Shown: piece after piece, positions 13,128 to 21,819 of the stretch
How positions within the stretch are numbered: the stretch's first letter is position 1
Layout of the letters: the number at the start of each line of letters is the position of its first letter
Assembly (NCBI RefSeq): GCF_017348835.2
Contig: NZ_CP071375.1
Direction: 5' to 3' (one strand)
Length of the DNA stretch: 64,000 nt
From: Escherichia coli
GTDB lineage: Bacteria; Pseudomonadota; Gammaproteobacteria; Enterobacterales; Enterobacteriaceae
Notes under the pieces: model-generated
What the model was told of the DNA's origin: nothing
The model's database searches: none
What the model saw: the letters and a program-made list of their open reading frames with translations, nothing else
Program-made: the position numbers and the translations under genes

Positions 13128-14333
13128 TTGAGCAAGACACCACTGACAGCAAAGGCCATAGAGGCCGCACAACCGCAGGACAAGCCCTATAAACTCACCG
13201 ATTCACAGACACCTGGCCTGTTTTTGCTGGTCCATCCCAACGGCAGCAAATACTGGCGATTCCGGTATTGGATAGACAAGAAGGAGCGGTTACAGGCTAT
13301 TGGGGTGTATCCGCTGATTAGCCTCAAGGAAGCCCGCAAACGCGCCACAGAGAGCCGTTTACTGATAGCCCAGGGAATTGACCCAATGGATTTGGCACGC
13401 AAGGAGAAAGCCATTGATGCTCTTAATGCTATCGCCAGTTTTAAAGCTGTAGCAGAAGACTGGATGGCTACCAAGGTGAGCGGATGGAGTGAGAGCTATA
13501 CAAAGCAGGTCAGATCGGCACTAGAGAAAGATGTTTACCCCGTGCTAGGTAAGCGGTCGATAGTGGATATAACGGCCCGTGACGTGCTGGCGTTACTACA
13601 GAAAAAGGAGCGCACCGCACCGGAACAAGCCAGGAAATTACGCCAGCGTATCGGGGAGATCTTCAAATTTGCCGTTATCACTGAACTGGTTAACCGGAAT
13701 CCGGTTGCAGATCTGGATACGGCACTGAAAGCCAGACGCCCAGGCCATAACGCGTGGATACCGATTAATGAAATTCCGGCCTTCTACAAAGCCCTTGAGA
13801 GAGCTGGGAGCGTTCAGATTCAGACGGCAATACTTTTGCTCATCCTCACAGCTTTGAGGACGGCAGAATTGCGCCTGATGCGCTGGGAATGGGTAGATCT
13901 GCAATCGGCAACAATCACATTGCCCGCTGAAGTCATGAAGGCCCGCCGACCGCATGTTGTCCCGCTATCCCGGCAGGCGGTCGAGCTATTACAGGACCAG
14001 TTTACCCGCAGCGGATACAGTGCTTTCGTCTTTCCTGGCCGATTCATGGACAAGCCACTTTCAGCCAGTGCCATCCTTAAAGCCCTGGAGCGTATCGGAT
14101 ACAAGTCGATAGCCACAGGCCACGGCTGGCGGACCACCTTTTCAACGGCGCTTAATGAGTCCGGCAGGTACTCACCAGACTGGATCGAAATCCAACTGGC
14201 CCACGTTCCGAAAGGCGTGCGCGGTGTTTATAACCAGGCGGCCTACCTGAAGCAACGACGGGCCATGATGCAGGATTATAGCGACTGTATTGATTCAATA
14301 CTGGCTGGTGACGGTAATCCACTTGAACCGTGA
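13128..14333 (+). CDS. intZ: P4-family tyrosine site-specific integrase
   Basis: 401-aa ORF; AP2-like N-terminal domain; C-terminal catalytic region with R..HGWR..Y signature (HGWRTTFSTAL, RGVYNQAAY); first island gene beside the left repeat. Confidence 0.88.
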   Translation: MSKTPLTAKAIEAAQPQDKPYKLTDSQTPGLFLLVHPNGSKYWRFRYWIDKKERLQAIGVYPLISLKEARKRATESRLLIAQGIDPMDLARKEKAIDALNAIASFKAVAEDWMATKVSGWSESYTKQVRSALEKDVYPVLGKRSIVDITARDVLALLQKKERTAPEQARKLRQRIGEIFKFAVITELVNRNPVADLDTALKARRPGHNAWIPINEIPAFYKALERAGSVQIQTAILLLILTALRTAELRLMRWEWVDLQSATITLPAEVMKARRPHVVPLSRQAVELLQDQFTRSGYSAFVFPGRFMDKPLSASAILKALERIGYKSIATGHGWRTTFSTALNESGRYSPDWIEIQLAHVPKGVRGVYNQAAYLKQRRAMMQDYSDCIDSILAGDGNPLEP

Positions 14334-14455
14334 ACTATAAGGCCGGGTTTATACTCAATATCGACGGTTGAAGCGCTCAAAAAACAACCGTGACAACCGT
14401 CACAAATATGCAATGTCAATGATCTGAATCAATAAATTGCCAATTCTTCGTTTCC

Positions 14456-14470
14456 ACTTTCGAATGAAAG
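14456..14470. repeat. 15-bp motif actttcgaatgaaag, copy 1 (internal inverted repeat ctttc/gaaag)
   Basis: Exact duplicate of 14591-14605. Confidence 0.7.
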
Positions 14471-14590
14471 CAAGATGCAGAAAAATAAATCACCATGAAA
14501 TCATGTACTTATTAATTTTGACCAAATGGTCCAAAATATCCTCGGTGAATCCATGCTTGCCACAGCCAGATGATTAATATTTAACCCATG

Positions 14591-14605
14591 ACTTTCGAAT
14601 GAAAG
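14591..14605. repeat. 15-bp motif actttcgaatgaaag, copy 2
   Basis: Exact duplicate of 14456-14470, 135 bp away, in AT-rich non-coding DNA. Confidence 0.7.
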
Positions 14606-14733
14606 TAAATTGATAAAAAAGTCAGTGTACACTAACTAAATCGAATATTTTTTGCGCTATGTTTGAATGATAATTGAGCAAAACTTTCGCAAGGTGTGAC
14701 GATGTGAGTAATTAATTTTAACTCTACAATAAA

Positions 14734-14791
14734 CCCATCCCGACAGGGATGGTACCTGGAGCGGAGCGAGAGGGACCATCCCCCTGTTTTT
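14734..14791 (+). terminator. Nested hairpins followed by a T-run (terminator-like; may also act on the minus strand)
   Basis: cccatcccgacagggatgg hairpin overlapping ggatggtacc..N16..gggaccatcc stem, then ccctgttttt. Confidence 0.45.
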
Positions 14792-14884
14792 AGTCTTTTG
14801 AAGTTAGTTTTTTAAGGGATTAAATAATTTTGCCTCAAATGAGACCACACCATACAAGGCCAAAAACAATCAGTATTGCGTGGA

Positions 14885-15400
14885 TCAGGCTGGTTTTTTA
14901 ACTATATACCCCGTATGCCAAGGATTCTGATCGCGCGGCATCGGGTCCGCCTTGATAGACTCATAAAACTTATCAGCCATCTCAGCCACAAACTGTACAG
15001 AGGATTCGAACTCAGCGTTTTTGTGTGCGGGAGGAAACCAGAAGTCTAACACGCCAGCATTTCTATTTTTACATACAGCGTATATAAGATAAGCATCAGA
15101 TGTAGGGGTAACTTTTTCGAAACCACCGGGACCATAACGACCAGTAGACCAGTCATCCCAGCATTGTTCTGTCCCGCTATAGCCGTACTGATTGGTATAA
15201 AGACCAATATTTACATGGACTTTACGTAAGTGGATAGGATATACACACGGGGGTTTATGGAAAAGAGTATCCTTTCCAAAATCAGGATGATGTCCATATC
15301 TCCAATGATAAATAAACGAATCCTTAAAGCTCTTTAATTCATCGTTTGTTTTAAACTTATTATCACTGTAGACCTTACCAATAAATTCATTCTGGACCAT
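14885..15400 (-). CDS. Hypothetical protein (171 aa), distal gene of two-gene island cassette
   Basis: ORF 14885-15403; ATG at 15398-15400; overlaps upstream gene by 14 nt; Trp/Tyr/His-rich, no family recognised. Confidence 0.6.
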   Translation of the reverse strand: MVQNEFIGKVYSDNKFKTNDELKSFKDSFIYHWRYGHHPDFGKDTLFHKPPCVYPIHLRKVHVNIGLYTNQYGYSGTEQCWDDWSTGRYGPGGFEKVTPTSDAYLIYAVCKNRNAGVLDFWFPPAHKNAEFESSVQFVAEMADKFYESIKADPMPRDQNPWHTGYIVKKPA

Positions 15401-15734
15401 CAAAGCTTACACTCTTTAAGCGTTCTTCTCGTGAATCGAATAAATCTTTTGATAAATCACACGCTTGTGTGAACGTCATTTTTTTTACTCGTGGTACAGC
15501 CATAGGCGAGGCCGCATTCATCACTTTGTTTTCTTCGTGATCGAGAGTAGCAGTGTAGCGAAACATGACACTTTTACCGCGCACCAACTGGTATCCTAGT
15601 CGATACGCTAACGCGTCAAGATGCGTCAGACGATTTGTTTTACGCAAGCCAGTCATAGCTTTTGGCTTACGAGTGCGCACAGAAAGGGATTTCCCTTCTC
15701 GCTTAGTCGCAAACAAAGTAACTATTTTTGACAT
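15387..15734 (-). CDS. Hypothetical basic protein (115 aa), proximal gene of two-gene island cassette
   Basis: ATG 15732-15734 preceded by GGAGA RBS; Lys/Arg-rich; stop overlaps start of downstream gene. Confidence 0.55.
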   Translation of the reverse strand: MSKIVTLFATKREGKSLSVRTRKPKAMTGLRKTNRLTHLDALAYRLGYQLVRGKSVMFRYTATLDHEENKVMNAASPMAVPRVKKMTFTQACDLSKDLFDSREERLKSVSFDGPE

Positions 15735-16290
15735 GGTATCTCCTGACATCAATCTGCTAAGGCCATTGTGCCTTGTTTGAATAGTAAACTATTCGCCCAA
15801 TCTACACCAGTGATTTTCTTGACGCCAATAGTAAAGGCAGCATTGCCCACCACAGGCAGACAATGAGACTTCAGATAGCGCACCTTCTATCGCGCACGCG
15901 CTCAATAAAACCAACGACACCGCCATCCTGCCTGACCGATGTTTTTAACCAGCGTATACAGAGAAACAGACAACAGCATGAAATCAGCGTATATCCAGGT
16001 GCAGACGGCACTATCACACAACGCACAGCAGGCTGAGGTGAACACTCAAGCAACTTTATCCCCGCCACCGACCACCGCAAACTATCATGACCGTGCCAAA
16101 TTCAAAAGGAATGGCCCATATAACGCGATGAACACACATAAGCGCTACACTTGCTTACCTGAAAACTTCACAGCGTCACAGCGCGTTTTAGACACGTTAA
16201 AATTAATGAGATTTCATTAAATTTTCACCAGACACCGGAACAAGCCTATAAATCAAAAATGAATTACCGACATGCGCCGCTGGCGTTCAC

Positions 16291-16310
16291 AGGAAGAATC
16301 AATAACTTAG
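16291..16310. repeat. Imperfect direct repeat aggaagaatcaataacttag, copy 1
   Basis: 17/20 identical to 16391-16410, exactly 100 bp downstream. Confidence 0.55.
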
Positions 16311-16390
16311 GCCAATGGCGAAAGTTAAACAAAATCAAGAACTTGCAGAAATGCAGGATGAAGCAGCCGATGTGCCCCGTTGGATTTTAC

Positions 16391-16410
16391 CAGAAGAATC
16401 AACAAGTTAG
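16391..16410. repeat. Imperfect direct repeat cagaagaatcaacaagttag, copy 2
   Basis: See 16291-16310. Confidence 0.55.
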
Positions 16411-16662
16411 ACTCGGTGATTTCACCGACTCCTGCCGGACTACTGACCAGATCGAACCATTCCCCAAATTTGGGGAGAGCAAACCACACGCAGATCCTGC
16501 CAGGCTATTTCATCCCACCGCATCACGTATTTGCACACTTCCCCGCTGACGTGCTCATTTTGATAACGAGTTACCCGCTAGCCCTTGCCACATCACCATT
16601 TGTCGCGCTTTGACTAAATTAGCGACGTGCCTGTTATAGCGATACGCTAGTTATGCAGAAAG

Positions 16663-16682
16663 CGCGACATATCCAGCAACCA
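16663..16682. repeat. Exact 20-bp direct repeat cgcgacatatccagcaacca, copy 1
   Basis: Identical to 16790-16809; lies just upstream of the 16707 ORF start. Confidence 0.7.
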
Positions 16683-16706
16683 TGCACCCTACAGAGGAAT
16701 TGAATC

Positions 16707-17159
16707 ATGCGAGACATAGACTGGTCAGCTATCCCTTTCGATGATTTACCGCCCTGGCATCTGGACTGGGACGTAGACCAACGCGAAAACGCGACATATC
16801 CAGCAACCACCAGCATTACAGCGATGCGCCCCGTAAAGCCTAAGAAATACCAGGCAACCGACCTGATAGCTCACCTCAAAGCTATTGGCGGCGTATTTAC
16901 CGGAAGCAAAGACACGCTTGCACATGAAGTATGGCCCCGGAAGACGCCAGCGGGTCGAACCGTTTTACGCTTACTGACCGAACTGTCAGACAACGGCGAC
17001 GCTGTAGTGATTAACCGTGGTCGTTGTGGCGTGGAAGTTATTCTGACGCCGAAGAACAGGGCACAGACGCCTGAATTAAGCGCACCCAAGCAAATGCATA
17101 GCCAAAAATTAAGTCCAGCAGAACGCGTTATATCGCTTTTAAATGGCATCGGATTTTAA
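16707..17159 (+). CDS. Hypothetical protein (150 aa)
   Basis: ORF with GAGG RBS about 10 nt upstream of the ATG; non-repetitive composition; no family recognised. Confidence 0.5.
   Translation: MRDIDWSAIPFDDLPPWHLDWDVDQRENATYPATTSITAMRPVKPKKYQATDLIAHLKAIGGVFTGSKDTLAHEVWPRKTPAGRTVLRLLTELSDNGDAVVINRGRCGVEVILTPKNRAQTPELSAPKQMHSQKLSPAERVISLLNGIGF
16790..16809. repeat. Exact 20-bp direct repeat cgcgacatatccagcaacca, copy 2
   Basis: Inside the 5' end of the 16707 ORF; 127 bp from copy 1. Confidence 0.7.
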
Positions 17160-17185
17160 TTAATTTTGATGTGGTAATTGCAGGC

Positions 17186-17213
17186 AAAAAAATCCCGCCG
17201 GAGAAAGCGGGGA
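17186..17213 (-). terminator. Intrinsic terminator-like hairpin oriented for the minus strand
   Basis: Minus-strand reading ccccgctttctccggcggg followed by U7 (plus strand aaaaaaa-tcccgccggagaaagcgggga). Confidence 0.5.
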
Positions 17214-17446
17214 AGTGAAATCAATCGTTGTAGTTATAGATCACATTTTGGAGTTGAGGATGGCTAATCCTCGCTAATATTATCGCGCCGTTATGTGATG
17301 GGCGCAATTATTTCTTACTAATTAAAAGTTTTGTAAATATTACAGAATATCCCTTTTCACTATATGGTAAAAGATGTGAAACAGGGACATGAGGAATATA
17401 ATATTAAGTATCAACAGTAATGTTGGTCTTTAATTTCATTCAGGGC

Positions 17447-17490
17447 GCGGTGAGGGTTTTCTCCATATTTTTCCTCACCGCTACTTTTTC
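17447..17490 (+). terminator. Terminator/attenuator-like hairpin immediately upstream of the AlpA-like gene
   Basis: gcggtgagg..N17..cctcaccgc stem then tactttttc; a third complementary segment gaggtgag overlaps the RBS of the next gene. Confidence 0.45.
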
Positions 17491-17501
17491 GAGGTGAGAA
17501 C

Positions 17502-17693
17502 ATGAATGATAGCGAATTAATGACGGTGAACGAGGTAGCCGCTTTATTCGGCGTTACCCGTCGGACAATATTCCGGTGGATGAACAAGATTAAAGGCTGG
17601 CCCGTCCCGGTCAGTCCGATTGGCTCAAGAATTAAGTTTATCCGATCTGAGATTTTGGAATTCTATAAAAACAAAGGCGCTCGCCACCAATGA
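17502..17693 (+). CDS. AlpA/Xis-like small DNA-binding regulator (phage transcriptional regulator family)
   Basis: 63-aa ORF with HTH-like segment VNEVAALFGVTRRTIFRWM; GAGGTGA RBS. Confidence 0.65.
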   Translation: MNDSELMTVNEVAALFGVTRRTIFRWMNKIKGWPVPVSPIGSRIKFIRSEILEFYKNKGARHQ

Positions 17694-17769
17694 AAACAGC
17701 TACTGAGATTATCAAATAACCTATTGATTTAAAAAGCTAGCTACCGCAATTTCTGAAGGAATAGGCAGC

Positions 17770-18096
17770 ATGAAAATCAAAGCAAACACAATTAAAGAAA
17801 TAACATCAATCAAAGTAAAAGGAGCAGATGCCATGCATTCATTAGATAGTTATTTTCAGCGCACGACAGCCCCTAAATCAGCCGCCCAGGAACGCCGTGA
17901 GGAATTCCAGGAAAAAGTGATGCGTTCTGCTGATTATATTGCGGACAAGTTCGCGGAAACGGTTCGGCCACTTGTTGATGAAGTAGCTGATAAACTTCAG
18001 TCTGAAATGCCGGAAGACATGGAAGGCACTGCAAAGGCGCGACTCCTTTTTGAATTAAGTCGTCGTTTCGGCGTGTCAATAAGCACTTTTAAATAA
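17770..18096 (+). CDS. Hypothetical phage protein (108 aa)
   Basis: ORF in co-directional island gene string; no family recognised. Confidence 0.5.
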   Translation: MKIKANTIKEITSIKVKGADAMHSLDSYFQRTTAPKSAAQERREEFQEKVMRSADYIADKFAETVRPLVDEVADKLQSEMPEDMEGTAKARLLFELSRRFGVSISTFK

Positions 18097-18113
18097 TCGG
18101 AGGAGGAAAGACA

Positions 18114-18656
18114 ATGGACGCATTTGATGTACTGACAAACAAAGGCGATGAACTGGTAGCACAGCGTGATAAAACCGCCAACGAAGGGGAACGCGCACTG
18201 TTAAATAAGCAGATTAAAGCGATCCGTATGGCCCAGTTTAAATTAATCAGCAATGAAGTTATCGAAAAAATTAAACCGCAGATCCCACAAATCGTTGCTG
18301 ACGCTATTAAAGCCGCCGGACTGGAGAAACGCATTGCCGGGCTGAAAACGAACGCAGAGAAAATGGAGATGCACAAACAGAGCGGTGCTCCGACTCCGGA
18401 TGAGTACTTCTCACCGGATGCTGAGTTTATGGCGCAGGTTGAGGAACGTCTGGGTAGCTGTCTCACCGAGGAACAGTGTCGCTATTTTGATGGAGTGGAT
18501 AGTTCGGCAGGTATTGACCTGAACTCGTATTTCGGTCGTGAAATTGAGCATTTTGATGCCGCCCCGTCTATGCCGGAGCCAGAACCAGAAATGGCCGCCG
18601 ATCCTGAAGCTGAGCAACGGAAACGCGTATTCAATGCGATAGGGATTCGGTACTGA
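18114..18656 (+). CDS. Hypothetical phage protein (180 aa), acidic C-terminus
   Basis: ORF preceded by GGAGGAAAG RBS (18092-18108); no family recognised. Confidence 0.55.
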   Translation: MDAFDVLTNKGDELVAQRDKTANEGERALLNKQIKAIRMAQFKLISNEVIEKIKPQIPQIVADAIKAAGLEKRIAGLKTNAEKMEMHKQSGAPTPDEYFSPDAEFMAQVEERLGSCLTEEQCRYFDGVDSSAGIDLNSYFGREIEHFDAAPSMPEPEPEMAADPEAEQRKRVFNAIGIRY

Positions 18657-18707
18657 TCGGATAAAAGAAAGCCGGGAATTACCCCGGCTGACTTAACAAT
18701 GTGACCA

Positions 18708-19082
18708 ATGAACAAATCGGACAAGACAAACAGGATAAGCAGTCTCGAAACAATGTTCGGGAACTATATTAGCACAAGTCCGGAGAAAATCATCATGTTG
18801 GCACTACGCATCATGCAGGGCATCGCTAAGACCCTCGCAGAACATGTCTTAGACCTGAAACATTCGCCACTGAGCAAACAGGCCATGAAGCGCCAAACGC
18901 TTCGTCTGTGGGCTGAATATTCGCTTGGAACTATCAATAAAATCATCGACATGAAATCGGGGCCGAGCAACCAGAGCGCGGAGGAAATGGAGTTCATCAG
19001 GCGTTTAATTCTCATTCGCAGAGACATTCATAGCCAGTTACACAGCGTGGGAATCGATATTAATGATGGGACGGGCGATTAA
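18708..19082 (+). CDS. Hypothetical phage protein (124 aa)
   Basis: ORF in co-directional gene string. Confidence 0.45.
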   Translation: MNKSDKTNRISSLETMFGNYISTSPEKIIMLALRIMQGIAKTLAEHVLDLKHSPLSKQAMKRQTLRLWAEYSLGTINKIIDMKSGPSNQSAEEMEFIRRLILIRRDIHSQLHSVGIDINDGTGD

Positions 19083-19120
19083 TTTTCGGACAAGTACTAT
19101 GCGCGCGCGAGGAGCTGAAC

Positions 19121-19351
19121 ATGAAGCAAGATATTGCAGACAGGCTGGAGATACTCGAAGGCCAGCGGGCAGAAGCGAAACAACTACGTAAGCAGGCCAG
19201 AAGAGCGCACAGGAACTACGAAGCAGAATCACTGACCGCTTTCATCAACTTCACAAACCGTTGCATCCTGGAGTGTTACAGGGAGGATGCAGAAAACTGG
19301 CTGGATTCATTGCCAGAACAGACTCTGCATGAACTGAACGGCGACCAGTAA
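19121..19351 (+). CDS. Hypothetical phage protein (76 aa)
   Basis: ORF with GAGGAG RBS upstream. Confidence 0.45.
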   Translation: MKQDIADRLEILEGQRAEAKQLRKQARRAHRNYEAESLTAFINFTNRCILECYREDAENWLDSLPEQTLHELNGDQ

Positions 19352-19638
19352 ATAAATCCAGTACGTTTCCCGCAGTGCGCATAACGTACATTATGTGAAA
19401 AACGATATGGATATATATCAGTCTGACTTCAATGAAGAAAACGGACTTCCAGCATCAACCACAAAGAAGTATGGCTAATGCAGCTTTATAAGCCATTGAT
19501 TCTATTAAACGATATTTTTTGTGATTGGTTGAAGCAAACCAAAACACGATGCCACTGAAGCGTTAATAAACTGTTTCAATGTGAAATTATCAGAGTAAAG
19601 AACAATTTGGAGGGTCCGCAAACGCGGATAACAATATC

Positions 19639-21819
19639 ATGAGTGGAAATCTCGGGACCATATACTACGAGGTCGATGCCCGCACTGGGAAACTTCTTAT
19701 CGCGCAACAGCAGGCGGAAGAGGCGTTCGATCGCATTGAACGAGGAGCGCGGAAGGCTGATAGCGGCGTCAAAAAGTTAAATACGCAGATGACTAAAACA
19801 TCAGCCGCAGTCAAAACCAACCTTTCCCCGGCAATCCGTAACGCATCATACCAGATCGCAGACCTTGCCACTCAATTGCAGATGGGCGGTAATGCGCTTC
19901 AGGCGTTCGCTGTGCAGGGTGCGCAGTTATTAGCTGGCTTTGGCACGATGGGCGCGGTAGCTGGCGCGGTGCTGGCTATCGCTGGCGCTATGGGTGGAAG
20001 CCTGGCACAAGGCGCTGATAGTGCAGCCGGATCGGTTGAGTATCTGGACAAGGCGATCACCAAACTGAACGAGGTCATAGCTGTAAATGAACAGGGCGTG
20101 ACGGTGATGAGTGATAGTTACGCCAGACTTTCTAAGGTTAACGCTGAAGTAGCGAAACAGATGCGGAACATGGCTGAAATTCAGGCAATTGCAGCACTGC
20201 GTGACCTGAAAGAACAGGCAAGCCAGGCACAGGGGGAAATGTCGTCATTCTGGCGCAGCTTGCAGGGTGGTAAAGCTGACGCAGCAGCAGCAGCACAGGC
20301 ACTTGATGATCTTGGAATCACAACCAACGACTACAAAGAGGCGATAGCCATACTGAACGCCAATCAGCCGGATACACAGGCGCAAATGGCAACGCTAGCT
20401 AAGTCCGTGATGTACATAGGCGAGGAATACAACCTGACAAACCAGCAAGCCTACGAGTTCATCCGAGCACTAAATAGGGCCGCGACAACGAGAACGCCGG
20501 AAGCCATGCAGGAACTATCGGGCTTCATGCAGGTATTGCTACAGGACACCGAAAACGGTAACGAGGCATTCCGTGAACTGGCTATCAAATTCGTTGATGC
20601 ACAAACCAAAGGCGCAATGCTGGAAGACCAACTAAACCGACTGAAAGGCGCTATCAGTGACGCAGCCACAGAAGCCAGAAACGCCAATTTTACCACTATG
20701 CTCAACACCGTCGCCGCACGCCTGGCAGCCATTGAGCAAGGTTGGGAGGCAGGCGTTAGGATGCAGATGAAAGCCCAGGGCTACACTGAAGAGCAGATCG
20801 ATGAATATGTGAACATGGAAACGGCGTACCGTGATGCAAAAGCCGCTTTGGACGAGAAGAATAAGGCCGACCGTGAAGCTATTGCGCTATCCAAACGCCA
20901 GGCCGCAGAAGCAGCCCGCAAGGCAAAACAGGAAGAAGCTGAAGCACAACGCAAGGCCAAACAGTTAGCCGCGCAGAAGGAGCAGGCAGGACGCTTTACG
21001 CAGCAAGTAATGACGGAATACCTGACGACCGTAGATCCGGCAACAGGCAAGGCGTTTAACCCTGCCGCACAAGTAGAAATGCAGGAGCAGCAGAAGAAAG
21101 CGGCGCTGGATAAATACAGACAGTTGGGCGTCCTGGATGAACAGCAGTACCAGAACACGCTAACCGCCATCCAGAAAACCGCGTCAATGCGCCGCCAGCA
21201 AATCATCAAAGACGAGGCCGACACGTTATTCAACAATCAGCAACAGTTGATCGGCACATTTGGCGATTTCTTCGGTGAACTGTCTGGAGTCATAGCAGAC
21301 GGTGCAGGTGAGCAAAACGCGGCATATCAAGCGCTATTTGCTGTGCAGAAGGGTTTTGTATTGGCATCAGCAGCTTTAAGCCTTCAGAAAGCGCTTGCTG
21401 AGGCAAACGCCTTGCCTTTCCCGGCTAATCTTCCGGCCTATGCGCAAGCTATGTCAGCAGGCACGCAGATCATTTCAGCTATTCGTGGAATAGCTTTCGG
21501 TGGCGGACGCTACAACGGCGGCGCGGTTGGTGCTGGCAACCTGTACCGCGTGGGTGAACACGGTAAGCCTGAGATATTCAAGGCGAACAATGGCAGCCAG
21601 TACATGATCCCAGGTGATAACGGTCGCGTGATAAGTAATCGTGACATTGGCGGCGGTGGCGGCGTAACAATCAACAGCCCGATCACCATTAACACTACGA
21701 ATGGCTTCAGTGATGAAGACTCAAGGCGTCTTGAGGAAGCGATGAAGCGCGTAGCTATGGGCGTTTGCAGGCAGGAGTCAACCAGACCGGGAGGAATGTT
21801 AGCCCCGCGCCGTCGTTAA
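19639..21819 (+). CDS. Phage tail tape-measure-like protein (lambdoid H-like), orphan
   Basis: 726-aa Ala/Gln-rich coiled-coil ORF; C-terminal GNLYR motif and Gly-rich tail as in lambda H; no neighbouring tail genes. Confidence 0.6.
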   Translation: MSGNLGTIYYEVDARTGKLLIAQQQAEEAFDRIERGARKADSGVKKLNTQMTKTSAAVKTNLSPAIRNASYQIADLATQLQMGGNALQAFAVQGAQLLAGFGTMGAVAGAVLAIAGAMGGSLAQGADSAAGSVEYLDKAITKLNEVIAVNEQGVTVMSDSYARLSKVNAEVAKQMRNMAEIQAIAALRDLKEQASQAQGEMSSFWRSLQGGKADAAAAAQALDDLGITTNDYKEAIAILNANQPDTQAQMATLAKSVMYIGEEYNLTNQQAYEFIRALNRAATTRTPEAMQELSGFMQVLLQDTENGNEAFRELAIKFVDAQTKGAMLEDQLNRLKGAISDAATEARNANFTTMLNTVAARLAAIEQGWEAGVRMQMKAQGYTEEQIDEYVNMETAYRDAKAALDEKNKADREAIALSKRQAAEAARKAKQEEAEAQRKAKQLAAQKEQAGRFTQQVMTEYLTTVDPATGKAFNPAAQVEMQEQQKKAALDKYRQLGVLDEQQYQNTLTAIQKTASMRRQQIIKDEADTLFNNQQQLIGTFGDFFGELSGVIADGAGEQNAAYQALFAVQKGFVLASAALSLQKALAEANALPFPANLPAYAQAMSAGTQIISAIRGIAFGGGRYNGGAVGAGNLYRVGEHGKPEIFKANNGSQYMIPGDNGRVISNRDIGGGGGVTINSPITINTTNGFSDEDSRRLEEAMKRVAMGVCRQESTRPGGMLAPRRR

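Follow-up and report, generated by a model that had tools for sequence, protein, structure and literature searches.

Candidate autoregulatory operators, one of them in coding sequence, for an orphan winged-helix gene of an Escherichia coli integrase island

A 64,000-nucleotide stretch of Escherichia coli DNA (contig NZ_CP071375.1, hereafter the window) carries, in an integrase-bearing island of about 9.5 kb between eutB and eutA (13128-21819), a 150-codon open reading frame (ORF), here called ORF150, with a 20-bp sequence present once before its start codon and once within its coding region. The repeat is real and non-random and is very probably functional DNA, and comparison among homologous loci shows its in-ORF copy to be constrained at the DNA level rather than at the protein level. 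Our preferred explanation, to which we assign a probability of roughly 0.55, is that the two copies are two of three type-specific operators (of four, if the outlying site 0 is counted) for the winged-helix protein that ORF150 itself is predicted to encode, in an autoregulatory arrangement. The ORF150 product as binder, the position of the promoter, and repression as the effect are the parts of this explanation that we infer from sequence.

Sites in and around ORF150

The sequence CGCGACATATCCAGCAACCA occurs as two exact plus-strand copies in the window, at 16663-16682 and 16790-16809, the second beginning at the last base of codon 28 and ending at the first of codon 35. A search of the window allowing three mismatches found no third copy; in 100 shuffles the mean number of matches was 0.01, and none of the 100 gave two or more. 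The repeat, the ATG at 16707, the 150-residue ORF, the similar flanks and the 127-bp spacing had all been reported by a first-pass annotation made from the letters of the window, and each was confirmed. The repeat is in fact longer: with the preceding GAAAG or GAAAA, identity is 24/25 (16658-16682 versus 16785-16809, spacing 127 bp), and a common TACAG 8 bp beyond extends it more weakly to about 30/37. Two further sites had escaped that annotation, an inverted partial copy of 14 nt at 16598-16611 (ATTTGTCGCGCTTT), 93% complementary to 16659-16672, and a fourth related site at 16529-16541, which is invariant or nearly so among the loci that keep that upstream segment. From left to right we number these sites 0 to 3 (Table 1), sites 2 and 3 being the two copies of the repeat. 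The window thus holds at least two copies of one recognition-like sequence, one of them in coding DNA, where it falls within a predicted disordered linker (residues 25-42, 16779-16832). Elsewhere in the island the core motif is absent, except for one match with two mismatches inside the tape-measure gene.

Homologous loci were collected from E. coli genomes, from Logan assemblies, and from metagenomes scanned for a degenerate pattern of the invariant N-terminal peptide of ORF150. Alignments and motif scans of the resulting 23 loci distinguish three types of site core, AAAGCGCGACA, AAAGTGTGCAA and AAAGTGTGTGA, designated A, B and B'; their site positions, relative to the ATG, are given at the foot of Table 1. 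In each type, the promoter-side sites and one site in the linker-coding part of the ORF carry the same core. The in-ORF site does not keep its place: it is direct at +79 in type A and inverted at +123 in types B and B', where the type-B version encodes ..AVLHTLR... Linker sites at differing positions and in opposite orientations suggest orientation-independent recognition of DNA, and argue against both RNA pairing and a single historical accident. The sequence between sites is conserved across types (CTAAATTAGCGAC, TAGAAAG, GCAACCATGC), with the differences concentrated in the site cores. Every type-A locus inspected at the sequence level keeps both copies of the repeat 127 bp apart. No homologue was found that retains the peptide while lacking the upstream copy, the case in which the first-pass observation would have been refuted; instead, peptide and upstream copy change together.

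Type-B loci vary in the number of their left sites, which are either two, 70 bp apart, or just one (L008, L014, L017 and L021 versus L004, L005, L013, L016 and L020). The pair forms a 21-24-bp direct repeat, CATCACGTATTTGCACACTTT, at about -180 to -105 from the ATG, and the variation amounts to a 70-bp deletion or duplication between the repeats.

ORF150 as the putative binder

ORF150 is a real gene, since its codons 1-26 show 12 synonymous changes and 1 non-synonymous change relative to a 70%-identical homologue, that of GF3-3. Its product has no match in Pfam, even at E<=10, and none in PHROG or NCBIfam; tblastn against 50,697 phage records returned no homologue, and a search of the literature found nothing on it. 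An AlphaFold model built on eight homologues has a low-confidence N-terminus, disorder at residues 25-42, and a confident winged helix at residues 50-113, with the topology H1-S1-H2-H3-S2-wing-S3 that matches the MarR/ArsR/PadR-like fold. By this model, ORF150 is a winged-helix protein that lies outside every curated family checked (Pfam, NCBIfam, PHROG). Its N-terminal 26 residues are nearly invariant in all types, with substitutions at residues 3, 4 and 8 only, and we infer that they make a protein-protein contact.

The predicted recognition helix, H3, differs together with the site core. The type-specific residues cluster in its N-terminal half, which reads GRT(V/I)LRLL in type A, RRTLAAML in type B and RWTVAMLL in type B', while A and B proteins can be identical from residue 91 on. 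Site cores and recognition helix therefore covary within conserved flanks and behind a conserved N-terminal peptide, as in heteroimmune cassettes, and the variable block runs without interruption from site 1 to the recognition helix. Such a block is what would be expected of a specificity cassette, although linkage contributes to the covariation as well. Each genome has one place for the module, and none has two types.

These comparisons favor the first-pass suggestion of paired operators bracketing the start codon, with the amendment that the pair is part of an array of three to four sites whose core changes with the recognition helix. In the mechanism we propose, ORF150 protein would bind sites 1 to 3. 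Site 1 would abut the -35 region, site 2 would lie at or just after the probable transcription start, and site 3, 127 bp downstream of site 2 (12.1 helical turns; 16.4 in type B), would serve as an auxiliary intragenic operator acting through cooperative looping or as a roadblock. Bound protein would likely repress its own promoter and probably the downstream alpA-like operon too. The linker between the invariant peptide and the DNA-binding domain may be a region whose amino acids are free to follow the requirement of the DNA, and the type-A in-ORF copy may since have been kept matched to its upstream counterpart by selection, gene conversion, or both.

Several observations weigh against this mechanism. 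A consensus scan calls no sigma-70 promoter upstream of ORF150, and both candidate hexamer pairs are weak: TTGACT (16610-16615), which site 1 overlaps, has no good -10 at 17±1 nt, and the alternative pairs a conserved TTAGCG across 18 nt with TACGCT, upstream of site 2, where the GF3-3 type has TACAAT and the B' type TACGAT. With no called promoter and weak hexamers, the positions of the sites relative to the transcription start are estimates and the sign of regulation is uncertain, activation being possible. In type B', site 2 (-49) is degenerate (AAAGTGTTTGG), and in type-A loci site 0 retains a B-type core. Within the sites there is no clear dyad symmetry, an uncommon feature for dimeric winged-helix repressors, and the length of identity in type A (25-37 bp) exceeds what an operator needs and reflects a history of copying. 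Finally, with just three types and a single co-inherited block spanning site 1 through H3, linkage could partly explain the covariation.

The same small number of types and contiguous block, together with the site 0 core and the asymmetry of the sites, are what an explanation by some other binder would call on. By that account the sites are occupied by a different protein, for instance one from a helper phage, the host or elsewhere in the island, and H3 covaries through linkage alone. We regard it as improbable. Neighboring candidate regulators, as far as the sequences compared tell, do not track site type, and ORF150 does: the AlpA-like protein WP_000999975 is common to GF3-3 (type A) and EcRL2 (type B), an identical 54-residue protein occurs in GF3-3 and in PK13 (type B), and a 75-residue helix-turn-helix (HTH) gene that O157 carries is missing from the window. 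The type-specific residues, moreover, fall in the DNA-reading half of H3. Sites and ORF also move as a unit. In strain ARS-C301 (L025, 9854-21091) the module, 92% identical, lies at about 15740-16306 in a different island of about 11 kb beside ychJ, directly after a DEAD/DEAH helicase gene and before a 261-residue HTH gene, which indicates that it travels as a unit between island backbones.

A scan of GTDB species-representative genomes for the peptide pattern gave 119 pattern matches, none of them confirmed; a word-indexed protein search gave only about 10 close clusters, of which the few with a source name are from E. coli; and an exhaustive profile search gave only 16 matches. More distant relatives (L009, 5001-5696; L026, 4019-4687; L028, 5001-5597) have the winged-helix domain alone in common, their N-terminal parts being different (coiled coil, HTH). 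A 71-residue MarR-like gene is translationally coupled to one of them, another lies before a DUF5906 gene, and their elements also hold genes for Sf6-type terminase or tape-measure protein. At L009, the only distant locus scanned, no repeat pattern like that of the window was found. The C-terminal tail of ORF150 (17046-17159 in the window; also L002, L005, L008, L013 and others) is polymorphic independently of site type, with a long form ending ...PKQMHSQKLSPAERVISLLNGI(GF) and a short form ending ...LKNTVAAA*. Loci with the short form have a degraded remnant of the long tail readable past stop codons.

Constraint on the in-ORF copy, and competing explanations

The window and GF3-3, both of type A, are diverged, with 79% DNA identity over the region and 70% protein identity. 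In the eight codons of the repeat there are no synonymous changes, for which P is about 0.002 at the flanking rate (12/22 degenerate codons changed). The changes that do occur are N28S and Y31N, and both make the in-ORF copy match the upstream copy of GF3-3, to which it is identical at 25/25 positions, extending to 30 bp. Codons 35-45, just downstream, show 2 synonymous and 7 non-synonymous changes. The step from type B to B' tells the same story at another position, as the core change TTTGCAC to TTCACAC replaces VL with YS in the encoded protein, and the upstream site or sites carry a matching change. Among near-identical type-A lineages, the single mismatch of the pair has been homogenized in both directions, by an upstream G to A in L015 (GAAAACG) and by A16789G in the ORF of L024, and L012 is a recombinant with its breakpoint at the in-ORF repeat.

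As to origin, the sequence GCAACCA(TGC) following site 2 is type-independent, and the type-A in-ORF copy includes this GCAACCA as well as the downstream TACAG. The copy replaces a linker segment of similar length, and where type B has its in-ORF site, type A retains no more than a degenerate remnant (9/15). Aligned in this way, the loci point to templated copying of about 25-37 bp of site 2 and its flank, from the 5' untranslated region (5'UTR) into the linker, as the source of the type-A in-ORF site; such copying would account for an identity (25-37 bp) that extends past the shared core (11-16 bp). Of the first-pass idea of a recent slippage duplication, what stands is an origin of the type-A copy by duplication, as its 5'UTR flank (GCAACCA, TACAG) attests. 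The event is neither slippage nor recent; the duplication has been kept in lineages that share only 79% identity at the DNA level and 70% at the protein level.

That flank, the homogenization in L015 and L024, and the L012 breakpoint would also suit a functionless in-ORF copy, an ectopic duplication of a 5'UTR segment into a tolerant linker, homogenized by gene conversion, with the promoter-side sites alone having a role. We consider this slightly less probable still than another binder. The in-ORF sites of types B and B' lie elsewhere, in the opposite orientation, and at 13-16 bp are too short for efficient conversion, yet they track the B to B' core change exactly. The type-A repeat, for its part, lacks synonymous change where about 55% (12/22) of neighboring degenerate codons changed, and a 25-bp direct repeat 127 bp apart, which is prone to deletion, has been retained in every type-A locus inspected.

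A more distant alternative, which we think unlikely, makes the sites iterons of a replication origin and ORF150 their initiator, in the manner of lambda O or of an autoregulating plasmid Rep protein. The predicted winged-helix fold, the placement of sites partly in the linker-coding DNA of the binder's own gene, the type-specific specificity pairs, and the helicase gene directly before the ARS-C301 module would all accord with it. Only one of the four sites is intragenic, however, and the spacings of 61-172 bp in mixed orientation do not make a tight phased array. Further, there is no adjacent A+T-rich segment (GC content is 0.45-0.60 across 16480-17080), the protein has a single small winged-helix domain, and the eut-located islands show no helicase or primase gene beside the module.

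A recombination switch, with the gene turned off or on by a 127-bp deletion (type A) or inversion (type B) that is programmed or frequent, is very unlikely. Direct repeats of 25 bp at 127 bp can delete, and the 70-bp presence/absence polymorphism at sites 0 and 1 in type-B loci L008, L014, L017 and L021 gives a precedent of sorts. But neither a deletion product of sites 2 and 3, with the predicted junction …TTATGCAGAAAGCGCGACATATCCAGCAACCACCAGCATTAC…, nor an inversion product occurs in 22 E. coli genomes, 9 metagenome loci and 3 Logan loci, which leaves the first-pass proposal of a duplicated recombination site without its expected products. All type-A matches to a 301-bp probe in E. coli genomes are a single gap-free piece, the difference in orientation between types means there would be no common outcome, and the att sites of the island integrase are at the island ends. 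Least probable is action at the RNA level, through leader-ORF pairing or as a riboregulator target: in type B the leader copy is complementary to the one in the ORF, with which it pairs in the minimum-free-energy fold, but the type-A copies are direct and cannot pair, folds of the leader and ORF start are no more stable than shuffles (z-scores -1.0 and -0.55), an Rfam scan gave no credible match and none near the gathering score, and any plausible transcript would begin downstream of sites 0 and 1.

Island setting, known parallels and significance

Table 1. Features of the island and the ORF150 module in window coordinates, followed by the site types with positions relative to the ATG.
Feature	Position	Strand	Description
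intZ	13128-14333		Integrase; first gene in island order
YafO-family toxin gene	14885-15403	-	RefSeq annotation; PHROG 1651
Partner of YafO-family toxin	15387-15752	-	121 residues; overlapping and upstream of the toxin gene; no family match
Site 0	16529-16541	-	GAAGTGTGCAAAT on minus strand; type-B core in a type-A locus; about 70 bp upstream of site 1
Site 1	16598-16611	-	AAAGCGCGACAAAT on minus strand; inverted partial repeat; end overlaps the TTGACT hexamer
Candidate promoter region	16610-16648	+	Putative hexamers TTGACT 16610-16615, TTAGCG 16619-16624, TACGCT 16643-16648
Site 2 (repeat copy 1)	16658-16682	+	GAAAGCGCGACATATCCAGCAACCA; in leader, between candidate -10 and Shine-Dalgarno
Shine-Dalgarno	16693-16699	+	AGAGGAA
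ORF150	16707-17159	+	150 residues; ATG at 16707; no family match
N-terminal peptide	16707-16784	+	Codons 1-26, MRDIDWSAIPFDDLPPWHLDWDVDQR; acidic/aromatic
Site 3 (repeat copy 2)	16785-16809	+	GAAAACGCGACATATCCAGCAACCA; codons 27-34 and first base of codon 35 (ENATYPAT)
Predicted winged-helix domain	16854-17045	+	Residues 50-113; H1-S1-H2-H3-S2-S3; predicted local distance difference test (pLDDT) 81-86
Predicted recognition helix H3	16953-16994	+	Residues 83-96, GRTVLRLLTELSDN
AlpA-like HTH gene	17502-17693		After ORF150, then several small ORFs
Tape-measure-like gene	19639-21819		726 residues; PHROG 1538, E 3e-103; island end
Type A sites	-106(-), -48(+), +79(+)		Core AAAGCGCGACA; window, ARS-C301, GF3-3, KSC9, L010-12, L015, L018, L023, L024
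Type B sites	-177(-), -107(-), -49(+), +123(-)		Core AAAGTGTGCAA; O157 PV15-279, PK13, EcRL2, L013, L014, L016, L017, L020, L021
Type B' sites	-107, +123		AAAGTGTGTGAATACG, 16/16 identical, also at -177 in L019; BMH17, L019

The window matches E. coli chromosomes at 100% identity. ORF150 heads the rightward operon of an island that shares its insertion site, between eutB and eutA, with the K-12 cryptic prophage CPZ-55 (PMC6379469). CPZ-55 aligns with the island only in the integrase (82% identity) and in short segments at the ends, and it lacks the ORF150 module, so that the K-12 literature is not applicable. No recognizable tail gene other than the tape-measure-like gene was found in the island, and its relatives also carry Sf6-type small-terminase-like and HNH genes; a tape-measure-like gene without other tail genes, and terminase-like and HNH genes in relatives, make the island look like a phage satellite.

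Other observations concern the surroundings of the module. The toxin pair is cargo between integrase and regulatory module, present in some relatives (O157, EcRL2) and not in others. Loci are mosaic upstream of about 16490, and in this mosaic region, upstream of the conserved module, lies a second imperfect direct repeat (16267-16310 and 16367-16410; 44 nt, 75% identity, spacing 100 bp, common ...AGAAGAATCAAYAASTTAG), a part of which, GGAAGAATTAACAACTTAGG, recurs in GF3-3 and PK13. Just after ORF150 a terminator-like hairpin with a T-run occurs at 17194-17211, on the minus strand but not on the plus strand. It is followed, ahead of the alpA-like gene, by a strongly A+T-rich stretch (17300-17420, GC 0.20-0.35), and positions 17254-17283 give a promoter-like match. 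The module is bracketed by a perfect 12-nt inverted repeat (16536-16547 and 17206-17217; CACTTCCCCGCT and AGCGGGGAAGTG), which was set aside as probably coincidental, about 2 such pairs being expected by chance in the 8-kb region searched.

Most likely, the arrangement is an uncharacterized example of an already known kind of self-regulating switch and introduces no new principle of regulation. Auxiliary operators in coding sequence are familiar: the gal operator OI lies inside galE and the lac operator O2 inside lacZ, and E. coli purR reportedly has two operators downstream of its promoter, one of them within its own coding region (Rolfes & Zalkin 1990). Like these, the ORF150 array has the same site at the promoter or leader and again 80-170 bp downstream in coding sequence, at a spacing near an integral number of helical turns (127 bp, 12.1 turns), and the regulator's own gene would be the target. 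Unlike them, ORF150 belongs to an orphan winged-helix family rather than to LacI/GalR, its binding and looping are predictions made here, and its intragenic site sits in codons of a disordered linker, where it demonstrably sets the amino acids, with both Y31N and the change of VL to YS in step with the upstream site.

Lambdoid immunity regions offer a second parallel. There too, discrete types differ jointly in several operators and in the recognition helix, and neighboring sequence is conserved and recombines freely. The ORF150 module differs in having no divergent cI/cro pair, a winged helix in place of the lambda-repressor HTH, and a small int-alpA-terS island in place of a phage, and any cross-immunity between its types would be a prediction. 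In lambda O and ori-lambda, initiator binding sites lie in the linker-coding part of the initiator's own gene and are type-specific among lambdoid phages. The ORF150 module shares a site in the linker-coding DNA of its putative binder's gene and the covariation of site and DNA-binding domain, but has a single intragenic site with the others flanking the promoter, no tight iteron array, and no A+T-rich unwinding region. In position, ORF150 resembles Stl of the Staphylococcus aureus pathogenicity islands (SaPIs) and the regulators of AlpA-controlled Gram-negative phage-inducible chromosomal islands, as it heads the rightward operon of an integrase island of about 9 kb with an AlpA-like gene and, in relatives, a small-terminase-like gene. 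It has no sequence relationship to Stl, matches no PHROG or Pfam family, and lacks a homologue among the phage records searched.

A broader proposal, which we offer tentatively and hold to be rather doubtful, is that ORF150 and its site array form a hitherto unrecognized, immunity-like master switch for a family of int-alpA-terS islands in E. coli, themselves likely to be phage satellites. The switch would exist in at least three non-cross-reacting types, would have an operator embedded in its own linker codons such that specificity and linker peptide co-evolve, and would use the N-terminal peptide to dock an inducing signal from the helper phage.

If the proposed reading is right, an orphan family with no domain annotation, heading the main operon of small islands in the eut operon and elsewhere, would gain both a function and target sites. 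The module would provide a clean natural case of selection on DNA overriding selection on protein, with linker replacements that mirror changes in the upstream operator, and an instance of specificity switching by a regulator-operator pair in a satellite-like element. Control of Gram-negative satellites is generally attributed mainly to AlpA, and a repressor-type module ahead of alpA would add usefully to the biology of these elements.

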